26,705 bases of DNA, from contig JAFVAS010000311.1 of assembly GCA_017480395.1 (NCBI GenBank), positions 1-26,705 of the forward strand, given 5' to 3'. Position 1 is the first letter of the stretch; each line of letters opens with the position of its first letter. This DNA is from Oscillospiraceae bacterium. GTDB taxonomy: Bacteria > Bacillota > Clostridia > Oscillospirales > Oscillospiraceae. Below are positions 1 through 11,798 of the stretch, piece by piece. The notes under the pieces are model-generated. The model searched no databases. It saw only the letters and a program-made list of their open reading frames with translations, and was not told the origin of the DNA. The position numbers and the translations under genes are program-made.

Positions 1-154
1 CCGCAGCGAGATACAGGGCTGCCGGTGCGCCCAGGCCTCCGGCGCCGATGATCAGCACCTTGGAGTTGAGCAGCTTCTTCTGCCCCTTGACGCCGACCTC
101 CTTGAGGATGATGTGCCGGGAGTAGCGCTCCAGCTGTTCGTTGGTGAAGGCCAT
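1..154 (-). CDS. ThiF/MoeB/HesA-family (E1-like) sulfur-carrier adenylyltransferase, N-terminal part only (runs off the left edge)
   Basis: Manual translation from ATG at 154: [51 protein letters not shown]. It has the RYSRH..L and GAGGLG motifs of ThiF/MoeB. The ATG directly abuts the TGA of the ThiS-like gene. Confidence 0.93.
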
Positions 155-361
155 TCAGCAGCCACCTCCCATGAAGTAGAGGAACTCCACCTCGTCGCCC
201 TCCTGGAGGATCCGGGTGGTGCGCTCCGCCGTGGCCAGGAATTCATCGTTGATGGTGACGGTGACATAGATGGGGGTCTCCACGTTCTCCGCCTCGATGA
301 GCTGCTCCACGGTGAGTCCCTCGGGATATTCCTTTTTGACGCCTGCAACTGTGATGATCAT
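155..361 (-). CDS. thiS: ThiS/MoaD-family ubiquitin-like sulfur carrier protein (68 aa) ending ...EFLYFMGGGC
   Basis: Size and pattern (I.V.G...N.E.......L..GD.VE....MGGG) match ThiS-like carriers. RBS GAGAGGAG upstream; adjacent to a ThiF-like gene. Confidence 0.9.
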   Translation of the reverse strand: MIITVAGVKKEYPEGLTVEQLIEAENVETPIYVTVTINDEFLATAERTTRILQEGDEVEFLYFMGGGC

Positions 362-381
362 AATTTGTTCTCCTCTCTTGT

Positions 382-627
382 TCAGTCGCCCACCTTGCGG
401 ACGATCAGGTCATAGGTTCCGTCTTCGTTGTGGATGAGCTTCAGGATCTGATGCCCCTCCTCCTTGATGCTGCGCGGTACGTTCTGGACGGGCTCGCCAT
501 CGTTCATATGGATGGACAGGATGTCACCCTCCTCCAGCTCCTCCAGGGCCACCTTCGCCTTGACAAAGGTGACGGGACACACCACGTCGGTGATGTCCAC
601 GGTGTCGGTGATGTTGTAATCAGCCAT
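382..627 (-). CDS. TusA/SirA-family sulfurtransferase (81 aa)
   Basis: MADYNITDTVDITDVVCPVTFVKAKVALEELEEGDILSIHMNDGEPVQNVP has the D....CP motif and TusA fold pattern. Start re-called to ATG 627 (GAGGAGG RBS), overlapping the upstream stop by 8 nt. Confidence 0.9.
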   Translation of the reverse strand: MADYNITDTVDITDVVCPVTFVKAKVALEELEEGDILSIHMNDGEPVQNVPRSIKEEGHQILKLIHNEDGTYDLIVRKVGD

Positions 628-1480
628 GATATGCCTCCTCGATTTTTGCGGTAAAGTCCTCCCAGCCCAGGCGCTCCAGCGTCTTGGCAAAGCGCTCGCC
701 GGGGTTGGCGTGTTCTGCGAAGTAGTCGATGGCGGTGTCCGCCACCCGCCACAGGGTCTCCTCGTCCTCGATCAGGGGGAGCAGCTCGGTGCCCTTCTGG
801 ATGGAGTTGCCGAAGGTGCCGCCGAAGGAGACCAGGAAGCCGCTCTTCCCATGCCACGCCCCGGTGGGACAGGCGGTGACGCAGCGGCCGCAGTGGTTGC
901 ACTGATCGGCGTTCAGCCGGATCTCGCCGTCCTCGATGGTGATGGCCCCCTGGCGGCAGGCCTTCTCGCACACGCCGCAGAGGATGCACTCCTCCTTCAC
1001 CCAGCTCACCGCCATGCCGCCCTTGACGCCCAGGTCGTTCTCCTCGGCCTTGAGGCAGTTGTTCTGGCACCCGGTGACGCCGAATTTGAACTTGTGGGGA
1101 AGCTGGCGGCCAAAGTAGCGCCGGTCCAGCTCGGTGGCGATGTCCAGGGCGTCGATACAGCCGCTGGGACAGCACTTTCCGCCCTGGCAGGCGGTCACCG
1201 TGCGCACCCTGGGGCCGCAGACTCCGGGCTGGACGCCGCCCTCGGCCAACTCCGCCTTCACCGCCTCGATGTCCTCCAGCTGAATGAAGGGGATCTCCAC
1301 TCCCTGCCGGGAGGTGAGGTGAACGTAGTCATGCCCGTATTTCTTCGCCACGGCGGCGATGGTTTGCAGCTGCTCCACCGTCACCGTGCCTCCCACCACC
1401 CGAAGGCGCAGGGAGAAGGTGTTCTTCTGCTTCTGGCGCATAAAACCGCCGGCCTTCAGCGTTGCGTAATCAACAGCCAT
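620..1480 (-). CDS. Small sulfite/nitrite reductase-family protein (siroheme-[4Fe-4S] half-domain plus 2x[4Fe-4S] ferredoxin insert), 286 aa
   Basis: LTSRQG, TACQGGKCCPSGC and KFKFGVTGCQNNC (siroheme/FeS ligand pattern); ferredoxin motifs CILCGVCEKAC and CNHCGRCVTAC. AGGAGG RBS. Confidence 0.88.
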   Translation of the reverse strand: MAVDYATLKAGGFMRQKQKNTFSLRLRVVGGTVTVEQLQTIAAVAKKYGHDYVHLTSRQGVEIPFIQLEDIEAVKAELAEGGVQPGVCGPRVRTVTACQGGKCCPSGCIDALDIATELDRRYFGRQLPHKFKFGVTGCQNNCLKAEENDLGVKGGMAVSWVKEECILCGVCEKACRQGAITIEDGEIRLNADQCNHCGRCVTACPTGAWHGKSGFLVSFGGTFGNSIQKGTELLPLIEDEETLWRVADTAIDYFAEHANPGERFAKTLERLGWEDFTAKIEEAYHG

Positions 1481-1498
1481 ATGTACCCTCCTGTAACA

Positions 1499-3097
1499 TT
1501 AATAGAATGTGTAATTGACCGTATTTTCATAGAGGAGCCGATCCTTCTCCGGGCCGCCCTGGCGCAGGTCGAGAATCAGCTCTCCCCGCAGGCTCTCCCG
1601 CAGCATCCGCTCCGTCTCCGGGTCGAGATAGGTGCCGGAGACCACGGTAATCAGGCCCGCCCGCTGGAGCAGATCGGCGGCAAAGATCATCTGCTCACCG
1701 GCCACCCGGAGGCGCATGGTGTGCATCCCCTGGGACAGCAGCTCCAGCTCGATCTCTCCGGCCTTCCGGTCGTCGTCGGCCAGGATGAAGAACGGGGTCT
1801 GGCCCATGTACTTGGCCCGCACCTCCGGGCTGATCTCCGTCTCGCTCCGGGCGTGGGTGTCAACGACGGTCTCGATGACGCCGCAGGCGCTGGTGGCATT
1901 GGTCACCCGGTCGATGAGGATCAGCTCTCCCATCGTCCGGTGGTTGGAGAAGGTGTCCACCACAATGGGGGTGGACAGCTCGATGGAGCACAGGGCGATC
2001 TCGTTCTTTCGGAGGCTGGAGGCGTTCCGGTGCTCCCCGGTGTTCACGTCCACGATGTAGCGGATGCCGGTGACCTTGCCGGGGATGAGCCGAGTGCCCA
2101 CCTTGACGAACACCGAGTGGGTGTTGATCAGGGCGTCGTCGTCCATCCAGAGCAGGGTTGCCTCAAACCGGCTGGCGGTGTGCAGCGCGGCCCCCCGGGA
2201 GAGCACGCTGCCCCGGGAGACGTCCACCTCCCGATCCAGCTCCACGGTGACCGGCTGGCCCTGTCCGGCGGACTCCACAGGTCTGTCCCCCACCAGAATG
2301 CCCTTGATGGCCGCCTGGGTGCCGCTGGGGAGGATGGTGACCGTCTCCCCCACGGAGATCTCGCCCGACTCGATCTGGCCCTGGAAGCCCCGGAAGGTAT
2401 GATCCGGGCGGCATACCCGCTGAACGGGGAGGTAAAAGCCCTCCTCATGGCTGACGGTGTCCACCTCCACCGTCTCCAGATAGGGCAGCAGCGCCCCGCC
2501 GTCGTACCAGTCCATGATCCGGGAGGGCTGGGTGACATTCTCCCCCGCCGTGGCGGAGAGGGGGATGATTTTGACGTTTTGCAGCCCCAGCTCATTTCTC
2601 AGCTCTCCGATCTGGGACTTGATCTGCTCAAAGGGCTCCCGGGCATAGCCCACCAGGTCCATCTTATTCACGGCGAACACGAAGTACCGAATGCCCATCA
2701 GGGCGCAGATGCGGGCGTGGCGCCGGGTCTGCACCAGCACACCCTTGGAGGCGTCCACCAGGATGATGGCCAGGTCGGCAAAGCTGGCACCCACCGCCAT
2801 ATTCCGGGTGTACTCCTCATGGCCGGGGGTGTCCGCCACAATGAAGCTGCGCCGGTCGGTGGTGAAGTAGCGATAGGCCACGTCGATGGTGATGCCCTGC
2901 TCCCGCTCCGCCATCAGGCCGTCCAGCAGCAGGGAGTAGTCGATCTGGCCCCCCCGGGAGCCAACCCGGCTGTCCAGCTCCAGCGCCTGCTCCTGATCGG
3001 TGTAGAGCAGCTTGGTGTCATACAGGATATGCCCGATGAGGGTGGACTTTCCGTCGTCCACACTGCCGCAGGTGATAAATTTCAACAGTCCGTTCAT
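1499..3097 (-). CDS. cysN: Sulfate adenylyltransferase subunit 1 (GTPase) with a degenerate C-terminal APS-kinase-like remnant
   Basis: GSVDDGKSTLIG, AEREQGITIDVAYRYF, DTPGHEEY, NKMD. Overlaps the cysD stop as TGATG. Confidence 0.96.
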   Translation of the reverse strand: MNGLLKFITCGSVDDGKSTLIGHILYDTKLLYTDQEQALELDSRVGSRGGQIDYSLLLDGLMAEREQGITIDVAYRYFTTDRRSFIVADTPGHEEYTRNMAVGASFADLAIILVDASKGVLVQTRRHARICALMGIRYFVFAVNKMDLVGYAREPFEQIKSQIGELRNELGLQNVKIIPLSATAGENVTQPSRIMDWYDGGALLPYLETVEVDTVSHEEGFYLPVQRVCRPDHTFRGFQGQIESGEISVGETVTILPSGTQAAIKGILVGDRPVESAGQGQPVTVELDREVDVSRGSVLSRGAALHTASRFEATLLWMDDDALINTHSVFVKVGTRLIPGKVTGIRYIVDVNTGEHRNASSLRKNEIALCSIELSTPIVVDTFSNHRTMGELILIDRVTNATSACGVIETVVDTHARSETEISPEVRAKYMGQTPFFILADDDRKAGEIELELLSQGMHTMRLRVAGEQMIFAADLLQRAGLITVVSGTYLDPETERMLRESLRGELILDLRQGGPEKDRLLYENTVNYTFY

Positions 3098-3999
3098 CAG
3101 AAATACCCCTCCCGCTTGCGCTTCTCCATACTCGCCTCGCCGCCGTCCTGGTCGATGACCCGGCTGTTGCGCTCGCTGGTGACGGCGCTCAGGGTCTCCT
3201 CAATGATGGCGTCCAGGGTGTCCGCCGTGGACAGCACGCCCCCGGTCAGGGGGTAGCAGCCCAGGGTGCGGAAGCGCACGCTCTTATATTCCGGCGTCTC
3301 CCCGGGCAGAAGGGGCAGCCGATCGTCGTCCACCATGATGATGTTTCCGTCCCGATAGACCACCGGGCGCTCGGCGGCGAAGTAGAGGGGAACGATCTCG
3401 ATCTGCTCCCGCCGGATGTACTCCCAGATGTCCTTTTCCGTCCAGTTGGAGATGGGGAAGACCCGGATGCTCTCCCCCCGCTTGATGCGGGTGTTGTAGA
3501 GCTTCCACATCTCCGGGCGCTGGTTTTTGGGGTCCCAGGCCTGCTCGGCGTTGCGGAAGGAGAAGATGCGCTCCTTGGCCCGGGACTTCTCCTCGTCCCG
3601 GCGGCCGCCGCCAAAGGCGGCGGTGAAGCCGTACTGGGTCAGGGCCTGCTTGAGGGCCTGGGTCTTCATGATGTCCGTGTAGACGGAGCCGTGGTCAAAG
3701 GGGTTGATGCCCTGGGCCCGGCCCTCCTCGTTGGTGTAGACCAACAGGTCAAGGCCGTACTTCTCCGCCGTCCGATCCCGGAACTCGATCATCTCCCGGA
3801 ACTTCCAGCCCGTGTCGATGTGCAGAAACGGGAAGGGCGGCTTTTCCGGGTAGAACGCCTTGCGGGCCAGGTGAAGCATCACGGAGCTGTCCTTGCCGAT
3901 GGAGTAGAGCATCACCGGCTTTTCGCACTCCGCCGCCACCTCCCGGATGATGTAGATGGCCTCCGCCTCCAGCTTGTCAAGATGCGATAATTCCTGCAT
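3097..3999 (-). CDS. cysD: Sulfate adenylyltransferase subunit 2
   Basis: [51 protein letters not shown]. Confidence 0.97.
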
Positions 4000-4011
4000 G
4001 ATATCCTCTCC

Positions 4012-4326
4012 CTAGTACTTATTTGCGCTGCGCCGGTCCACGGTGATGGTGACCGGCGGCTCTCCGGGCCGGGTGATGACCCAATGGGTCAGATCCCCTG
4101 CGCTGCGAACCTGCATCAGGCCGCCCCGCCCTCCGATATCAGCCCCGAGATAGTAGTAGATGGCGCCGTGGGCGCACTCCTTCAGGCAGGAGGCGCAGCC
4201 CCAGCACTCCTCGGGGCGCTTCAGATAGGCTCTGCCCTGGGCATCAGCGCGGATCAGGTTGCCGGGACACACCTCCCGGCAGAGTCCGCAGCCGACACAG
4301 GCTTCGCGGTCAATCCGTATGCTCAT
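4012..4326 (-). CDS. aprB: Adenylylsulfate reductase beta subunit (2x[4Fe-4S] ferredoxin), 104 aa
   Basis: CVGCGLCREVCPG and CWGCASCLKEC. Start re-called to ATG 4326 (AAGGAGG RBS), overlapping the end of aprA. Confidence 0.88.
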   Translation of the reverse strand: MSIRIDREACVGCGLCREVCPGNLIRADAQGRAYLKRPEECWGCASCLKECAHGAIYYYLGADIGGRGGLMQVRSAGDLTHWVITRPGEPPVTITVDRRSANKY

Positions 4327-5998
4327 AGGCACCCTCCTTTACCAGCTCCCGGCGAAATACCCGGATCTGTCCATCGACCAGCCGGGAGTTGACGTAGCGC
4401 TCCTCCTCGGCCCGGGGGGCGGGATAGTCCGTGTGGATGGCAAAGCCGGGCCATCGGGTCTCCCTCCGCTCCAGCAGATGGGCGATCAGGGTCTGACACA
4501 CCGTCAGCCGGTCGGTCAGCTCGTAGATGTGGACAAGCTCGTCCATGTCCTCCGCCCGCAGCGTTTCGGCCAGCGCGGCCAGCGACGCGATCTGCGATCG
4601 GGCCAGGGACAGCTGGTTGGCGTTGTAGCGGTAGCCGGTGCGGATGCCCCCGGCGTACTCGTCCATCACCTTCTGCATGGCCTCCTCCAGGGCGAACACG
4701 TCAAAGGCTTCGCCGGATTTCGCCGCAAGGCGGGACTGGTATTCCTCCAGCACCGGCTGGGCCAGCGCACGGAAATCGGCCTGTGAACCGTCGGACTGTT
4801 CGCCGAGATCGTCCAGCACCGCCTCGGCGGCGATGGCCCCCTCGGCCAGAGCGCCGGTGACGAACTTCTTGGGCGCGCCGCCGGAGACGTCCCCCGCGGC
4901 GTACAGGCCGGGAACCGTGGTGCGGCGGCGGGTATCCACCCAGAAGCCGCTGGCGGTGTGACCGCCGACGATGTAGGGCTCGGTGCCCTCCACCTCCACG
5001 TTCTGCCGGGAGGGCAGGCTGCCGCTCTCGATCCACTTCAGGGTCTGGGCGGGGGCCATGTTGAGGTAGGCCTTGAGGAGATCCTCCTCCTGCTGGGCCG
5101 AGATGCCCTCGGTGCGCAGGTAGCAGGGGCCGCGGCCCTCCCTGGCCTCATTGGACGCGCCATAGGCCCGGCCGGAGGTGGACAGGCCGTAGCGCTGCTC
5201 AAACACCTCTCCAAGGGCGTTGACCTCCCTGGCCCCGGCCCCCAGGGCGATGGTGCCGGTGGGGGCAATGGTATCCTTGCAGCGCTGGGCCACAAAGCGC
5301 ATCTCGAAGCTGGTCATCTCCGCCCCGGCCCGGATGCCCATGGCATAGCCCGCCCCGGTGTTGAAGGGCGGATACCACATTTTATGCCGGGAGAAGCCCG
5401 GATTGTTGGGGCGGTACAGCCCGGCGGCACCGCCGGTGGCGATGAGCACCGCCCGGGCGGAGATGGCATAGGCCTGCTCCTCTAACACAGAAAAGCCCGC
5501 CGCCCCCACGACCCGTCCGGCGTCCAGCAGAAGCTGCGTCATATTCAAATGGTTCAGAACGCGAACATTCCCATACCGACGCACCTGTGCTGCCAGTATG
5601 GGTTTGATGTTCTCCCCATTGATCTTGATATTCTGTTTCCCCCGGGAGACATAGCGCCCCCGCTCGTCCTTCTGAATGACCAGGCCCATCTGCTCCAGGT
5701 CGGCGGTGGCCTCGTTGAACCGCTCCGCCATAGTGCGCACCAGGTCGTCCCGGATGATCCCCTCGGCGTCCCAGCGGACAAACTCCAGGTAATCCTGAAC
5801 CGTCTGCCCCTCGGTGATGTAGGCATTCAGGGCGTTCACTCCGGCTGCCAGGCAGCCGGAGCGCTTGATATTGGCCTTTTCGGCAATGAGAATTTGAAGC
5901 TCCGGCGATCGCCGGGCGGCGGTGATGGCGGCATAACAGCCCGCCGTGCCGCCGCCGATGATCAGCAGATCGCAGGTCAGATATTGTTGTTTCATCAT
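4310..5998 (-). CDS. aprA: Adenylylsulfate reductase alpha subunit (FAD flavoprotein)
   Basis: GGGTAG FAD motif, RSGCLAAGVNALN, WYPPFNTG, MTSFEMRF, R.ETRWPG. Paired with aprB inside a cys cluster. Confidence 0.92.
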   Translation of the reverse strand: MMKQQYLTCDLLIIGGGTAGCYAAITAARRSPELQILIAEKANIKRSGCLAAGVNALNAYITEGQTVQDYLEFVRWDAEGIIRDDLVRTMAERFNEATADLEQMGLVIQKDERGRYVSRGKQNIKINGENIKPILAAQVRRYGNVRVLNHLNMTQLLLDAGRVVGAAGFSVLEEQAYAISARAVLIATGGAAGLYRPNNPGFSRHKMWYPPFNTGAGYAMGIRAGAEMTSFEMRFVAQRCKDTIAPTGTIALGAGAREVNALGEVFEQRYGLSTSGRAYGASNEAREGRGPCYLRTEGISAQQEEDLLKAYLNMAPAQTLKWIESGSLPSRQNVEVEGTEPYIVGGHTASGFWVDTRRRTTVPGLYAAGDVSGGAPKKFVTGALAEGAIAAEAVLDDLGEQSDGSQADFRALAQPVLEEYQSRLAAKSGEAFDVFALEEAMQKVMDEYAGGIRTGYRYNANQLSLARSQIASLAALAETLRAEDMDELVHIYELTDRLTVCQTLIAHLLERRETRWPGFAIHTDYPAPRAEEERYVNSRLVDGQIRVFRRELVKEGAYEHTD

Positions 5999-6001
5999 AG
6001 G

Positions 6002-7075
6002 TCAGATCACGACGCTTTCCCGCTTGAGGGACTGGTTGTACTCCATGGTCACCCGGTCTCCGTCCACCACAAAGAGCCGGTAGATGAAGACGTCCACCAC
6101 CTCGCCGACCTCAACAAAGGGATCGTTGATGCTCCGGATGGCGGAGATCAGATTGTCATGGAGCCGCACCCGAATCTCCAGGTTGCTGCCCCGGAAGATG
6201 ATGTCCTCCACCACGCCCTCTTCCGCGGAGCGGGAGAACTGGACACTCTCTCCTTTCTTGAAAATGCTGATGAACTCAGGCCGGAGAATGGCCACGGTGT
6301 CCGGGCCGCCCCGGGCAAAATACTGGAACTGGTCGTAATTCTTCACCGGGATGGAGTTGCCGATGAACTGCACCACAAAGGGGGTGGCGGGGTTGGCGTA
6401 GAGCTCCTGGGGGGTGCCCGCCTGCTCCACCCGGCCCTGGTTGGTGACGATGATGTCGTCCGCCACCTCGATGGCCTCATCCTGGTCGTGGGTGACGAAG
6501 ATGCTGGTGATGCCGATCTGGGTGATCATCTCCCGCAGCCAGGTGCGCAGCTCCAGCCGGACCTTGGCGTCGATGGCGGCAAAGGGCTCATCCAGCAGCA
6601 GAATCTGGGGGTTGGGGGCCAGCGCCCGGGCGAAGGCCACCCGCTGCCGCTGACCGCCGGAGAGCTGGCTCGGATAGCGCTTCTCCAGCCCCTCGCAGTT
6701 GATGAGCTTCAGCAGCTCGGCCACCCGCTCCTTGATCTCATTCTCCGGGGTCTTCTTGACCCGCAGGCCGAAGGCGATGTTGTCATAAACCGTCATGTAG
6801 CGGAACAGGGCGTAGCTCTGAAACACGAAGCCGATGCCGCGCTCGCTGCCGGGGATGTTGTTGACCACCTTGCCGTCGATCAGGATCTCCCCGGAGTCGG
6901 GGTGCTCCAGCCCGGCGATCATCCGGAGGATGGTGGTCTTTCCGCTGCCGGAGGGGCCCAGCAGCGCCACCAGGCGGCCCTTGGGGATCTGAATGTTGAT
7001 GTCCTTGGACGCTTGAAAGCTGCCATAATGCTTGTTGATGCCGCGCAGCTCAACGTAATTTGCGTTGTCACTCAT
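6002..7075 (-). CDS. cysA: Sulfate/thiosulfate ABC transporter ATP-binding subunit
   Basis: Walker A GPSGSGKT, LSGGQRQRVA signature, LLLDEPF Walker B, TOBE-like tail; context. Confidence 0.94.
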   Translation of the reverse strand: MSDNANYVELRGINKHYGSFQASKDINIQIPKGRLVALLGPSGSGKTTILRMIAGLEHPDSGEILIDGKVVNNIPGSERGIGFVFQSYALFRYMTVYDNIAFGLRVKKTPENEIKERVAELLKLINCEGLEKRYPSQLSGGQRQRVAFARALAPNPQILLLDEPFAAIDAKVRLELRTWLREMITQIGITSIFVTHDQDEAIEVADDIIVTNQGRVEQAGTPQELYANPATPFVVQFIGNSIPVKNYDQFQYFARGGPDTVAILRPEFISIFKKGESVQFSRSAEEGVVEDIIFRGSNLEIRVRLHDNLISAIRSINDPFVEVGEVVDVFIYRLFVVDGDRVTMEYNQSLKRESVVI

Positions 7076-7093
7076 GGAGATACCTCCCTTGAA

Positions 7094-7924
7094 TCAGTAA
7101 TGGATTTCCGCTTCCTTGTTGCCCCGGCGCTCCAGCCAGACCCGCAGGGCCAGCACGATAATCGCCAGAATCACCAGGATGGAGGAGGCGGCGAAGGCCC
7201 CCGTGAAGTCATAGCCCTGATAGAGCAATTCAATGTAGAGGGGCAGGGTGTTGGTCTTGCCCCGCAGATGGCCGGACAGAACGGAGACCGCTCCAAACTC
7301 GCCCATGGCCCGGGCGGTGCAGAGGACAATGCCGTAGAGCAGGGCCCATTTGATGTGGGGCAGGGTCACCTTGCGGAAGATGGTGAAGGTGCCCGCGCCC
7401 ATGAGGGCGGCGGCCTCCTCCTCGTCGGTGCCCTGGGCCGTCAGCACCGGGATCAGCTCCCGGGAGATAAAGGGGAAGGTCACGAAGATCGTGGCCAGGA
7501 CGATGCCCGGCACGGCGAAGATGATCTGAATGCCCCAGCCGTCCAGAATGGGATACAGAAAGCTCTGACGGCCGAAGGTCAGCACATAGATCAGGCCGGC
7601 GATGATGGGGGACACCGTCACAGGCAGGTCAATGAAGGTCGAGATGACCTTCTTGCCCTTGAAGGCGAATTTGGTCAGGCACCAGGCCGCAGCAATGCCG
7701 AAGATGGTGTTGACCACCACCGCCCAGATCGTCGCCCGGATGGTGAGCAGCGCCGCCTTGATGGCGTAGGGGTCGGTGATAGAGGCGATGTAGCCGCCGA
7801 TGCCGTCCCGCAGAGCGGTGATGACAATATAGAACAGGGGCAGCAGCAGGAACACCGCCAGGAAAATGACGACAAGGATGATCAGCACCCACTTAAGGGG
7901 GCCGCTGTTTTTACGCAATTCCAT
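7094..7924 (-). CDS. cysW: Sulfate ABC transporter permease CysW
   Basis: IDLP..VSP.IAGL, EEAA..MGA, RAMGEFGAVSVLSG, TLPL. AAGGAGG RBS. Confidence 0.94.
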   Translation of the reverse strand: MELRKNSGPLKWVLIILVVIFLAVFLLLPLFYIVITALRDGIGGYIASITDPYAIKAALLTIRATIWAVVVNTIFGIAAAWCLTKFAFKGKKVISTFIDLPVTVSPIIAGLIYVLTFGRQSFLYPILDGWGIQIIFAVPGIVLATIFVTFPFISRELIPVLTAQGTDEEEAAALMGAGTFTIFRKVTLPHIKWALLYGIVLCTARAMGEFGAVSVLSGHLRGKTNTLPLYIELLYQGYDFTGAFAASSILVILAIIVLALRVWLERRGNKEAEIHY

Positions 7925-7937
7925 AATCGGTTCCTCC

Positions 7938-8774
7938 TTATGCCAGGCCGGAGACCCGCCGGGAGACCACGCTCTGCAAAATGGCGTTCACCGACAGGAT
8001 GATGAAGGCGATGGCCAGCATGACCAGAGCGATGGAGGTGGCCGCAGCGTAGTCGAATTCCTGCAGCTCCGACATGATGAGCAGCGGGGCGATCTCCGTC
8101 TCATAGGGGGTGTTGCCGGCGATGAACACCACGCTGCCGTACTCGCCGATGCTGCGGGCAAAGGCCAGGGTGAAGCCGGAGATCAGGGCGGGGAGGATCT
8201 CCGGGAAGATCACCTTCCGGAAGGTGGTCTTTCGGTCGGCACCCAGGATCAGGGCCGCCTCCTCGTACTGGATGTCGATCTTCTCCAGCACCGGCTGGAC
8301 GGCCCGCACCACAAAGGGGATGCCGATAAAGATCAGGGCGATGGTGATGCCCAGCCGGGTGTAGGCAATGCGGATGCCGAAGACATTGTAGAAGAACTTT
8401 CCCACCCAGCCGTTGGTGGTGGTCAGATGGGTCAGGGAGATGCCCGCCACCGCCGTGGGCAGGGCAAAGGGCAGCTCAATGATGCCGTCGATGAATTTCT
8501 TGCCGGGAAAGTCATACCGCACCAGAACCCAGGCCATGATGAGGCCCATGACGGCGTTGATGAGGGCCGCAACCAGGGCCGTGGAGATGCTCACCCAATA
8601 GGCCGAGAGGATGCGGGGCCGGGTGATGGTATACCAGAACTCGGAGAAGGAGAGCTGGGCCGTGAACACCACCAGGGAGCACAGGGGGATCAGCACCACC
8701 AGGCTCAGAATGGAGATGGTCACGCCGAAGCTGAGTCCGAAGCCCGGTATGATGCTCTTGCGTGTTTTCTTCAT
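7938..8774 (-). CDS. cysT: Sulfate ABC transporter permease CysT (CysU)
   Basis: ELPFALPTAVAGISL, PFVVRAVQPVL, EEAALILGA, RSIGEYGSVVFIAGN. Confidence 0.94.
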   Translation of the reverse strand: MKKTRKSIIPGFGLSFGVTISILSLVVLIPLCSLVVFTAQLSFSEFWYTITRPRILSAYWVSISTALVAALINAVMGLIMAWVLVRYDFPGKKFIDGIIELPFALPTAVAGISLTHLTTTNGWVGKFFYNVFGIRIAYTRLGITIALIFIGIPFVVRAVQPVLEKIDIQYEEAALILGADRKTTFRKVIFPEILPALISGFTLAFARSIGEYGSVVFIAGNTPYETEIAPLLIMSELQEFDYAAATSIALVMLAIAFIILSVNAILQSVVSRRVSGLA

Positions 8775-8796
8775 CGGATCAAACCCTTTCGCTGTT

Positions 8797-8827
8797 TTGC
8801 CGGAGGGGGGACAGCCCCCTCCGGCAA
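8797..8827. repeat. 13-bp perfect inverted repeat between sbp and cysT (REP-like / mRNA-stabilising hairpin)
   Basis: TTGCCGGAGGGGG-gacag-CCCCCTCCGGCAA. There is no U-tract on the operon (minus) strand. Confidence 0.75.
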
Positions 8828-8834
8828 GGGCGGA

Positions 8835-9908
8835 TTACTGCTCGTAGATGGAGTCGAAATTGACACCGTCCGCGAAGTGGATCGCCCGGGCCTGCGCCCA
8901 GCCGCCAAAGTGGTTGATGTCCGTCAGCACCACGTTGTCGTTGATCCATTTGCCGTCCGCCGGAATTTCGGTGATGGTGTTGCCCTCTCCGGAGGACACA
9001 TACTGGTCGTAGATCTCCCGGGTGCTGGGCCGGTAGAAGTTCTCCGCCTCAATGACCTGGGCCTCATCGGAGTAGAGGAAGTTCAGATACTCGGTGGCGG
9101 CGTCCACGGTGCCGTGCTTTTTGGCCACCTCGTCCACCACCGCCACGGTGGGCTGGCACAGGATGGAGACGGAGGGAACCACGATCTCATAGTCGCCGGG
9201 GTACTCCTTCAGGGAGAGGAACGCCTCGTTCTCCCAGGCCAGCAGCACGTCGCCCTGGCCGTTCTCCACAATGGAGGTGGTGGCACCCCGGGCGCCGGAG
9301 TCCAGCACCACCACGTTGCCGTACAGGGTGCGGATGGACTCCAGGATCTCGTCATCGTTCTGGCCCTGGAGCTCGAAGAAGTACCAGGCCGCCAGGTAGT
9401 TCCACATGGCGCCGCCGGAGGTCTTGGGGTTGGGGGTGATGATGCCCACGTCGTCCCGGATCAGGTCATCCCAGTCGTAGATGCCCTTGGGGTTGCCGGC
9501 GCGAACCAGGAAGACGATGGTGGAGGTGTAGGGGGAGCTGTCCAGGGGGAACTCGGCGGTGAAGCCGTCGTCGATCAGGCCGGCATCCGCCACAACCTTG
9601 ACGTCGCCCTCCAGAGCCAGGGTGACCACATCGGCCTCCAGGCCGTTGGACACCTCCAGGGCCTGCTTGCCGGAGCCGCCGTGGGACTGGGTGACCTCGA
9701 TCTTCTGGCCGGTCAGCTCCTCGTAGTGGGGCTCAAAGATCTCGTTGTATGCGGCGTAGAGCTCACGGGTGGGGTCGTAGGAGACGTTGGTCAGCTCGAT
9801 GGTGCCGCCGGAGCTTCCGCTGGAGGAGGCACCGCAGCCCGTCAGCGCCGTCAGGATCAGCGCGGTGGATAGGATCAGCGCACCGAGGCGCTTGCCATTG
9901 AATTTCAT
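8835..9908 (-). CDS. sbp: Sulfate ABC transporter substrate-binding lipoprotein (Sbp/CysP family)
   Basis: Signal peptide with lipobox LTG-C; NVSYDPTRELY, QSHGGSGKQA, TPNPKTSGGA, WENEA. Confidence 0.95.
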   Translation of the reverse strand: MKFNGKRLGALILSTALILTALTGCGASSSGSSGGTIELTNVSYDPTRELYAAYNEIFEPHYEELTGQKIEVTQSHGGSGKQALEVSNGLEADVVTLALEGDVKVVADAGLIDDGFTAEFPLDSSPYTSTIVFLVRAGNPKGIYDWDDLIRDDVGIITPNPKTSGGAMWNYLAAWYFFELQGQNDDEILESIRTLYGNVVVLDSGARGATTSIVENGQGDVLLAWENEAFLSLKEYPGDYEIVVPSVSILCQPTVAVVDEVAKKHGTVDAATEYLNFLYSDEAQVIEAENFYRPSTREIYDQYVSSGEGNTITEIPADGKWINDNVVLTDINHFGGWAQARAIHFADGVNFDSIYEQ

Positions 9909-10026: not shown

Positions 10027-10131
10027 TCAGCAGTACAGAGACATTCGGACGCAACATCGGGGCATACACATTCGGCTGGACTTGGTATGGGAACAACAAC
10101 ACATCTTATGACAGATACACATTGTCTTCAT
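10027..10131 (-). CDS. Cys/Met-rich leader peptide (34 aa): MKTMCICHKMCCCSHTKSSRMCMPRCCVRMSLYC
   Basis: Manually translated; below the size shown in the ORF track. RBS GGAAAGGAAG just upstream of the ATG. 9 Cys and 6 Met codons. Sits between the promoter and the terminator of the sulfate operon. Confidence 0.8.
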   Translation of the reverse strand: MKTMCICHKMCCCSHTKSSRMCMPRCCVRMSLYC

Positions 10132-10493: not shown

Positions 10494-11105
10494 TCACTCC
10501 GCCTTGGGGAATTTCGGCAGAAGGATAATATAGAGGATATCAAACACGCTGCACACCAGCCCCATCAGCACGATATACGGGTTGAAGCCCCAGACAACGC
10601 CCTGCAGGACGGTGGGGGCCAGGGTGCCGATCCATTTGGCCACCGCAATGGTCATGGACTGCCCCCGGGTAGAGTTTCTCCGAAACAGCATGACCACAAA
10701 CAGGATGGACATGGCCGCATTCTGGGCGAATGCGGAGTACTGCGCCGCCGGAAGCGGGTCAAAGGCCAGGAAGAACGCCAGTTGGATGACGGCGCAGGCG
10801 GCAAAGGAGAGGATGGAAAAGGGGACAAAATACTTCTTTGCGCGCTCCGGGAACTCCCGCCTGCCGAACTCGAAGTAGGTGTAGACGATCACCGCGTCCA
10901 GGCACATCCACGCCAGATTGACAAAGGCCTGAACCGAGACGTCAAAGAGCAGATCATGAATGGTGTAGATCGTCTCCCAGGCGATATTCAGGCCCAGGGC
11001 ATACAGCGGCATGGCATAGGTCTTGGCCCTGAAGCCCTGCCGGATGCAGTCGATATACACGACAGACCATGCGATTCCACTGAGCAGAAGTAAAAACAGT
11101 TCCAT
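10494..11105 (-). CDS. Integral membrane protein of the PaxB/Pyr4 (transmembrane terpene cyclase-like) family, 203 aa
   Basis: About 7 hydrophobic helices; motifs W..Y...R...KTYAMP..AL.LNIAWE, RGQS..IA..KWIGT, FDILY. Start re-called to ATG 11105 (AAGGAGG RBS). Confidence 0.72.
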   Translation of the reverse strand: MELFLLLLSGIAWSVVYIDCIRQGFRAKTYAMPLYALGLNIAWETIYTIHDLLFDVSVQAFVNLAWMCLDAVIVYTYFEFGRREFPERAKKYFVPFSILSFAACAVIQLAFFLAFDPLPAAQYSAFAQNAAMSILFVVMLFRRNSTRGQSMTIAVAKWIGTLAPTVLQGVVWGFNPYIVLMGLVCSVFDILYIILLPKFPKAE

Positions 11106-11117
11106 ATGCGAGCCTCC

Positions 11118-11170
11118 TTGACATGTGTCAGCGTTATAGGTATAATAGTCAAAAAGCTGACAGGTGTCAA
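11118..11170. promoter_or_regulatory. Overlapping divergent sigma-A promoters with two inverted 14-bp operator palindromes
   Basis: Plus strand: TTGACA(11118)-N17-TATAAT(11141). Minus strand: TTGACA(11170)-N17-TATTAT(11147). Boxes TTGACATGTGTCAG (11118-11131) and CTGACAGGTGTCAA (11157-11170). Confidence 0.8.
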
Positions 11171-11234
11171 TACCTCTGGCACAAGTGGTACAGATGGCCG
11201 TTTCTGTCAGGGTTTGCATGGGAGGGAGCACGCA

Positions 11235-11798
11235 ATGTATCAGGGGACAAATCCTTCTGCGCTCCGGTCCAGGGAGTGGATCACCCAGGCGCTGCTGGCG
11301 CTTTTGGAGGAGGAGAGGTACGCCCGGATCACGGTGAAGGATATCTGCCAGCGGGCGCAGCTGTCGAGGCAGACCTTCTACCAGATCTTCGCGTCAAAGG
11401 ACGAGGTGCTGGAATACCGATTTGGGGCGCTTTTCGCCCAGTTCCGGGCGAAGTGCGGCAATTTCAGCGGCATCTCCCTCCGGGCGCTTGCCTGCGGTTT
11501 CTTTGCCTTTTTTGCGGAACACCAGGACTTCGCCCGGGTCCTGATCGCCAATCATATGTCCTATCTGTTTGAGCGGGAATTTGAGCGGTATCTGCCGGAG
11601 ATCGACCTGTTCCGGCAGATCAACGAGACGGAGGCACACCCGGACTATTCTGTGTGCTATGTGGCGGGCGCTCTGTCTCAAATGCTGATCCACTGGTACG
11701 AAAAGGACATGGATCTCCCGGTGGAGCAGATGGGCGCTTTGACGGAGGACATCATCAGCGGGCGGATTTTCGCAGCGGGCGGCAATCGAACCGGATAA
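11235..11798 (+). CDS. TetR/AcrR family transcriptional regulator (187 aa)
   Basis: HTH: ITVKDICQRAQLSRQTFYQIFASKDEVL. Start re-called to ATG 11235 (GGAGGGAG RBS). Confidence 0.92.
   Translation: MYQGTNPSALRSREWITQALLALLEEERYARITVKDICQRAQLSRQTFYQIFASKDEVLEYRFGALFAQFRAKCGNFSGISLRALACGFFAFFAEHQDFARVLIANHMSYLFEREFERYLPEIDLFRQINETEAHPDYSVCYVAGALSQMLIHWYEKDMDLPVEQMGALTEDIISGRIFAAGGNRTG

Follow-up and report, generated by a model that had tools for sequence, protein, structure and literature searches.

The classical leader-peptide transcription attenuators are the enterobacterial trpL, hisL and leuL. Terminator-based leader control requires a ribosome that keeps pace with the polymerase; to our knowledge, the ribosome does not keep pace with the polymerase in Bacillus subtilis. 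Translational attenuation of the erm and cat genes occurs in Firmicutes. Control of sulfur genes in this phylum is ascribed to S-box and T-box RNAs and to CymR.

Cys leader ORFs have been published for Actinobacteria and Rhodobacterales, and the high novelty claimed in a preliminary description of the locus studied here was therefore overstated. Cys leader peptides were predicted upstream of actinobacterial cys operons (Seliverstov et al. 2005, PMC1262725). The polycysteine leaderless short ORFs of Mycobacterium smegmatis (Ms5788A, "Cys ribulon") were shown experimentally to act by unmasking the ribosome-binding site (RBS) (Canestrari et al., 10.1101/834739). In Rhodobacterales, the Cys-Cys motif uORFC-8-2 with a terminator was predicted before cysS (PMC8632094). 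His leader peptides precede hisS/hisZ paralogues in Bacilli (Naville and Gautheret 2010, PMC2965389). Both 10.1101/834739 and PMC2965389 discuss erm/cat translational attenuation. Our full-text literature search returned no Cys leader family in Clostridia or in Firmicute sulfate-assimilation operons.

We analyzed a 26,705-nucleotide stretch of DNA from an Oscillospiraceae bacterium (the window), in which a Cys-rich leader ORF precedes a sulfate-assimilation operon. The control mechanism is already known, and the clostridial Cys leader family is a new member. Like the mycobacterial and actinobacterial Cys ORFs, the window's ORF has consecutive Cys codons before a cysteine-pathway operon. Pausing on Cys codons relieves repression in mycobacteria, and we propose that it does so in the window. 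However, the mycobacterial polycysteine ORFs are leaderless and work through an RBS-sequestering duplex, whereas the window's ORF is led by a Shine-Dalgarno (SD) sequence, would have a 5' UTR of about 46 nt, and is followed by an intrinsic terminator. The former ORFs occur in Actinobacteria and the latter in Clostridia, and their sequences are not homologous. Unlike the mycobacterial ORFs, the clostridial leaders have a conserved R-M-C or I-R-C context and a bias toward CGA and UGU codons.

The window shares with trpL, hisL, leuL and uORFC-8-2 a promoter, an SD-led ORF rich in codons for the end product, a terminator and a candidate alternative pairing. Its rare regulatory codons recall the rare CUA codons used in the leu leader. 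Among trpL-type features, we found in the window a translation start of its own, an excess of end-product codons, a terminator, and regulatory codons present in orthologues (R-M-C..R-C, shared with locus L003). However, the amino acid, the operon and the phylum differ from those of the trpL-type leaders and uORFC-8-2. The Cys codons of the window are spread along the whole ORF, whereas those systems have a single run, and the 1:2/2:3/3:4 pairing scheme of the trpL type is without statistical support here. The His leaders of Bacilli are a Firmicutes precedent for regular amino-acid leader peptides with terminators, but their amino acid, genes and class are different.

A Cys-rich ORF lies between a putative promoter and the sulfate operon

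The features of the locus are as follows.

10212-10184, minus strand: putative sigma-70-type promoter, read directly, with TTGCGT (10212-10207), a 17-nt spacer and an extended -10, TG-n-TATACT (10192-10184)
10176-10143, minus strand: operator-like motif TAAACC..CAAACC..ATAGGGAAAATAGGGAAA (also ATAGGGAAA) at the transcript start, just past the -10
10144-10138, minus strand: SD sequence AAGGAAG of the leader ORF, read directly, 6 nt 5' of the ATG
10131-10027, minus strand: leader ORF, 34 codons plus TGA, with a translation that matches the reported 34-residue peptide
10081-10074, minus strand: 5' strand of candidate antiterminator AT1, GUCC-A-GCC (codons 17-20), which pairs with the terminator 5' arm
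10069-10004, minus strand: predicted hairpin P1 from minimum-free-energy folds, in which Met-Cys codons 22-23 and Cys codons 26-27 pair with sequence just past the stop codon
10051-10036, minus strand: 5' strand of candidate antiterminator AT2 (codons 27-32), which pairs with 10003-9990 in the fold prediction
9998-9969, minus strand: intrinsic terminator from the terminator scan, with a 9-bp stem at 9998-9977 (6 G-C pairs), loop AUCA, an A, and U7 (9975-9969)
9908..1, minus strand: regulated operon sbp, cysT, cysW, cysA, aprA, aprB, cysD, cysN and a small sulfite reductase gene, assigned with Pfam

The preliminary description had placed a 34-codon ORF with nine Cys and six Met codons at 10131-10027, and its translation was exact. 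The Cys residues are at codons 5, 7, 11-13, 22, 26, 27 and 34, and the consecutive ones form a CCC run (codons 11-13) and a CC pair (codons 26-27). Direct reading, the terminator scan and Pfam agree with the described order of RBS, intrinsic terminator and sbp. The SD sequence has a 5-nt match to the anti-SD complement. The terminator has a free energy of -14.2 kcal/mol, starts 28 nt past the leader stop codon, ends 60 nt before sbp (start at 9908), and is the only one that the scan called downstream of the leader ORF. The promoter described at 10212-10184 is also present in the sequence, though its -35 is weak (3 of 6 bases match) and was missed by a consensus scan. Homologous leaders have TTGACA-17-TATACT or TATAAT at the equivalent position. 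The -10 ends 52 nt upstream of the ATG, with the SD present, and from this promoter, rather than from mapping, we infer a transcript start about 46 nt 5' of the ATG. The leader ORF sits between the promoter and sbp. The upstream gene (10494-11231, on the leader's strand) encodes a Pyr4-like membrane protein and, by eye, apparently has its own terminator. Therefore, the leader would be a separate transcription unit.

We shuffled the 297-nt leader 20,000 times with dinucleotides preserved. An ORF with at least nine Cys codons arose twice (p about 1e-4), and one with at least 15 Cys plus Met codons arose in 0 of the 20,000 shuffles. The window's genome has 63% G+C. Cys makes up about 1.2% of its codons, CGA 6.5% of its Arg codons and TGT 20% of its Cys codons; in the leader ORF, CGA encodes Arg in 3 of 3 cases and TGT encodes Cys in 7 of 9. 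When the AT-rich, SD-preceded short ORFs of the whole assembly were ranked by Cys density, the leader ORF was the sole clear match, and the same ranking yielded no convincing further Cys leader in this genome. A CGAATGTGT word on contig C137 was considered as a further Cys leader and rejected; it lies in the promoter spacer upstream of a transketolase gene.

The leader peptide had no match in Pfam or NCBIfam. Against Rfam, neither the window nor any of 18 related loci gave a match at the gathering score, and relaxing the cutoff to E values up to 10 brought up only noise on the leader. By this search, the window leader contains none of the described riboswitches and leader RNAs, S-box and T-box included. 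Of the sequencing runs listed, four DNA metagenome runs contain the stretch and a fifth, from the same study, contains none of it; the list includes no RNA run.

Related leaders fall into three types

A scan based on sbp retrieved 76 loci in species genomes and a further 24 in metagenomes. They come mostly from rumen or gut Oscillospiraceae, Acutalibacteraceae, Ruminococcus, Lachnospiraceae and unclassified Clostridia. SD-led, Cys-bearing short ORFs precede the orthologous sbp in about 20 of about 45 upstream-region clusters, and a Cys-Cys dipeptide is encoded by sense-strand ORFs of 10 clusters, compared with 2 clusters for the antisense strand; these loci are related and the counts are phylogenetically non-independent. 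The leaders are of three types.

Long Cys/Met-rich ORF followed by a terminator: window, L003, L020 and the L004 group
Short ORF ending in R-M-R-C-C: L006 group, L034 group and L039
ORF with the core S-A-G-G-x-I-R-C: L045, L051, L052, L055, L056, L061, L065, L086 and variants

The sbp loci of Pseudobutyrivibrio and Planctomycetes had no Cys-bearing leader ORF. Matches to the group-D core pattern outside sbp leaders (five genomes) were inside genes and were discarded; only those in sbp leaders were real.

The earlier expectation that regions upstream of sbp would hold conserved short ORFs enriched in Cys/Met codons was confirmed in part. Cys-bearing ORFs were found, but internal Met was enriched only in the terminator-type leaders (12 to 14%), compared with 6 to 8% for the R-M-R-C types; in the largest group, the I-R-C type, it was about 3%. 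Dual sensing of Cys and Met, as first proposed, is not established by these figures. Met in the leaders is nearly always encoded as CGA-AUG beside Cys codons. Its placement fits a context effect around the Cys codons and Met sensing equally. Met sensing is possible, as the TusA, ThiS-like and ThiF-like tail of the operon could feed homocysteine synthesis.

The window-type leader has only two recognizable homologues, L003 and L020. The metagenome scan found no closer homologue. When 400 genomes of the order were searched at the DNA level for this leader, only chance matches and one possible relic came up. The latter is a 39-nt stretch of L132 (reverse strand, near base 1500) with 85% identity to the central part of the window's leader (..CC-H-P-T-K-S-S-R.. 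frame). It is followed by a strong terminator but by no sbp gene. This stretch may be a decayed leader relic in another genome of the order.

The leaders have marks of translation

Several features indicate that selection acts on the leader peptides. Among the six conserved columns of the S-A-G-G-x-I-R-C core, the third codon position varies in all six, the first in one and the second in none. Among the D-R-Y-Y-Y-D-L-S-S-L-R-M-R-C leaders, the differences are synonymous changes at Tyr, Arg, Leu and Ser codons. The leader of the window can be aligned to that of L003 with two gaps within the ORF, of 9 and 3 nt; their stop codons align, and they have a common core, K-S-x-R-M-C-x-x-R-C-x-V.

The leaders also favor rare codons. 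CGA accounts for 36 of 70 Arg codons in 24 leaders (51%) versus 7 of 222 in the adjacent sbp genes (3%), and for 30 of the 36 Arg codons immediately 5' of Met or Cys; TGT accounts for 41 of 61 Cys codons in leaders (67%) versus 1 of 35 in the sbp genes (3%). Because these counts come from related loci, their p-value overstates the difference, yet at least 10 separate clusters contribute. In the window's assembly (G000), from which only 17 tRNAs were assembled, we found tRNA-Arg(ACG) and tRNA-Cys(GCA) and no tRNA-Arg(UCG). Because these are the tRNAs found, CGA and UGU would both be wobble-read, slow codons. Such codons are the expected choice for a hungry-codon sensor.

The leader ORF is therefore very probably translated, judging from these comparisons, as part of a real conserved Cys-responsive leader. 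The preliminary description had proposed a translated, Cys-codon-rich regulatory leader before a clostridial sulfate operon. This proposal is upheld by the orthologous Cys ORFs, the peptide-level selection, the in-frame indels, the rare-codon bias and the lack of a riboswitch or T-box. In the S-A-G-G-x-I-R-C core, purifying selection goes beyond what a hungry codon needs, which suggests a role for the nascent chain.

Terminators and predicted masking of ribosome-binding sites

Terminators were found in four clusters only, namely those with long Cys/Met-rich leaders (window, L003, L020 and the L004 group). In leaders without a terminator, the gap to sbp is 24 to 80 nt, except in L036 (124 nt) and L047 (154 nt), and folds of the free RNA predict that the sbp SD, which is usually GAGGU, is paired. 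For six I-R-C leaders, each from a different cluster (L045, L051, L052, L055, L061 and L065), the anti-SD partner is at +4 to +13 nt, counted from the first base of the conserved Cys codon, both where the leader ORF stops at that codon and where it continues. Therefore, the anti-SD would be inside the footprint of a ribosome waiting at the Cys codon. In the R-M-R-C leaders, the anti-SD partner is at -19 to -23. The L006 group, L047, L048, L057, L086 and L092 had no clear anti-SD geometry, and the group C leaders (L006, L007 and L075) had neither a terminator nor a clear anti-SD geometry.

The S-A-G-G-x-I-R-C leaders resemble erm/cat in that a paused ribosome would melt an anti-SD:SD helix a few nucleotides downstream. 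This erm-like design, which is also the one demonstrated for the mycobacterial polycysteine ORFs, requires no coupling to transcription. However, the erm/cat signal is an antibiotic, whereas that of the clostridial leaders would be tRNA-Cys charging. The window uses a terminator, located 60 nt before sbp, in place of RBS unmasking by a stalled ribosome.

Predicted folding of the window leader

AT1 and AT2 would compete for the terminator 5' arm, and this competition is seen when the RNA ends before the terminator 3' arm. AT2 appears in folds with the ribosome at codons 18-26. In equilibrium folding with ribosome masks, the probability of the terminator was at least 0.97 at any ribosome position. 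Because the terminator is dominant at equilibrium, only a kinetic switch model can work. A pairing analogous to predicted hairpin P1, AUGUGU/ACACAU, is found in L003.

We then calculated sequestration of the terminator 5' arm from folds of the RNA 3' of the ribosome only. In the window, the predicted value was 0.77 with the ribosome at Cys codons 5-13, 0.97 at Cys codon 22 and 0.51 at the stop codon. In L003, it fell from 0.8 at the early Cys codons to 0.00 at the stop codon, and in L020 from 0.9 to 0.03. Compared with shuffled leaders, sequestration was significant in L020 (p about 0.01) and marginal in L003 (p 0.07), and in the window it was not above that of the shuffled leaders (0.78 versus a mean of 0.80). 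The preliminary description had transcription reading into the operon when a ribosome stalls. An antiterminator helix for this step does exist in AT2, at -15.0 kcal/mol versus -14.2 kcal/mol for the terminator, but its arm sequestration does not exceed chance. We regard the window antiterminator, as modeled, as plausible.

Proposed mechanism and alternatives

We think it likely that the leader is a translated regulator through which the sulfate-assimilation operon senses how much charged tRNA-Cys is available. By its sequence, the window version most likely acts by transcription attenuation. We infer ribosome stalling, a choice between two helices, and coupling of ribosome and polymerase. In this mechanism, transcription would start about 46 nt 5' of the ATG, and a ribosome would load at the SD and read the leader. 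When Cys-tRNA is scarce, the ribosome would stall at the early UGU codons (5, 7, 11-13 and 22), which would be wobble-read and some of which follow a rare, wobble-read CGA. The distal third of the ORF could then pair with the terminator 5' arm, as AT1 or AT2. The resulting antitermination would let the polymerase transcribe sbp-cysTWA-aprAB-cysDN-sulfite reductase together with the TusA/ThiS/ThiF genes. With ample Cys, by contrast, the ribosome would reach the UGA and cover or unwind codons 28-34. With these codons covered, the 9998-9977 hairpin would form and transcription would stop.

The main control could instead be a DNA-binding sulfur regulator (CymR/Rrf2-like) at the promoter motif, with the terminator only dampening expression and the ORF having little or no regulatory role. 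The operator-like motif just past the -10 is kept as TAAACCTAC..ATAGGAAAT in most sbp leaders (TAAACC..ATAGG(G)AAA), and a similar motif is found at the metY promoter of L003's genome (L119:1260-1300). G000 has one occurrence of the motif and encodes one Rrf2-family regulator, and the fact that the window antiterminator is not above chance also favors such a regulator. The motif may be a CymR/Rrf2-type repressor site or a 5' stem-loop. It may resemble the published CymR box. A regulator as the main control leaves unexplained the Cys enrichment, the peptide-level conservation, the rare-codon bias, and the fixed distance from Cys codon to anti-SD in the relatives. Moreover, repressor and leader control can coexist, and from its sequence the motif probably adds repressor control to that of the leader. 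We therefore consider control chiefly by a DNA-binding regulator unlikely.

It is less probable still that an untranslated RNA element decides termination and that the ORF is incidental. Such an element could act as a riboswitch or be bound by a protein that recognizes the repeated GAAUGUGU / CGAUGUUG words. The CGAAUG and CGAUGU words do recur in otherwise dissimilar leaders, and Arg before Met or Cys is almost always CGA. However, Rfam had no match even at permissive thresholds, and every leader has a properly spaced SD and start codon. Third-position changes keep the peptide, including CGC/CGA/CGT and TGT/TGC at the R-C pair, and indels within the ORF are multiples of three. We find it highly improbable that the ORF codes for a small protein rich in Cys and Met with a function of its own, for example in binding metal or sulfur, and is coexpressed with the operon. 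Its CxC, CCC and CC patterns do resemble those of metal-binding peptides. But neither Pfam nor NCBIfam has a match, and the peptide is poorly conserved even relative to its nearest homologue, save for the R-M-C / R-C core. A terminator stands between the ORF and the operon, and the rarest codons are used, unlike in an expressed protein gene.

The translated Cys sensor could also be more specialized than a set of hungry codons, although we hold this extension to be doubtful. The conserved contexts around the sensor codons, Arg(CGA)-Met-Cys, Met-Arg(CGA)-Cys-Cys and Gly-Gly-x-Ile-Arg-Cys, may form a programmed arrest module. Here the nascent chain, together with a wobble-read CGA at or close to the P site, would slow acceptance of Cys-tRNA, and one or two Cys codons would suffice as the sensor. 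Placed before the sulfate operon and metY, the module would make these genes of gut and rumen Clostridia a sulfur amino-acid regulon run by the ribosome. If this is true, the terminator-type members, such as the window, would point to functional coupling of transcription and translation, or to programmed pausing, in Oscillospirales.

Leaders near metY, and significance of the family

In L006's genome, L118 (reverse strand) has a 25-codon ORF, seemingly without an SD, about 60 to 140 nt before the start of a metY-like gene. The ORF has six Cys codons and a G-R-M-C core, with R-M-C written as CGA-AUG-UGU. By its sequence, this kind of Cys leader would then serve a second sulfur gene, metY-like, in that genome. 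In L003's genome, the metY-like gene (L119:1320-1500) has an apparent N-terminal extension of about 55 residues, of low complexity and rich in Lys, Ala and Pro. It appears to precede the usual K-F-E-T-L-Q-L-H start; alternatively, the start codon was miscalled.

Ribosome-read Cys leaders would add a fourth layer of sulfur control in Clostridia that are dominant in the gut and rumen. A Cys leader would also explain how a sulfate operon of patchy distribution brings along a portable sensor. The family lends itself to comparing two outputs of one sensor, termination and RBS unmasking. With it, one could also test cleanly whether a hungry-codon sensor is tuned by peptide context and by rare wobble codons (CGA and UGU). 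Its terminator-type leaders would be a direct handle on transcription-translation coupling in uncultured Clostridia.

Operon tail, neighboring genes and distribution of the operon

From the ORF list and a direct reading of positions 1-690, the operon tail up to the window edge contains TusA-like, ThiS-like and ThiF-like ORFs. On the minus strand of this region are a TusA-like ORF with a CPxT motif, a 68-aa ThiS-like ORF ending in G-G-G-C, and the start of a ThiF/MoeB-like ORF. This tail hints at a protein-thiocarboxylate route of sulfur incorporation.

On the other side of the leader (10494-11798), no other terpenoid genes lie near the Pyr4-like gene. Its product is a transmembrane protein of the Pyr4-like terpene cyclase family (PF25129, E 2e-27), and the gene adjoins a divergent TetR regulator.

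The sulfate-assimilation operon is patchy: of 61 related genomes, 2 were found to have it. In MAGs of rumen Planctomycetes (L029-L033 and L073), the sbp proteins are 74 to 78% identical to that of the window. Judging from these sequences, transfer of the sulfate operon from phylum to phylum seems to take place in the gut or rumen.
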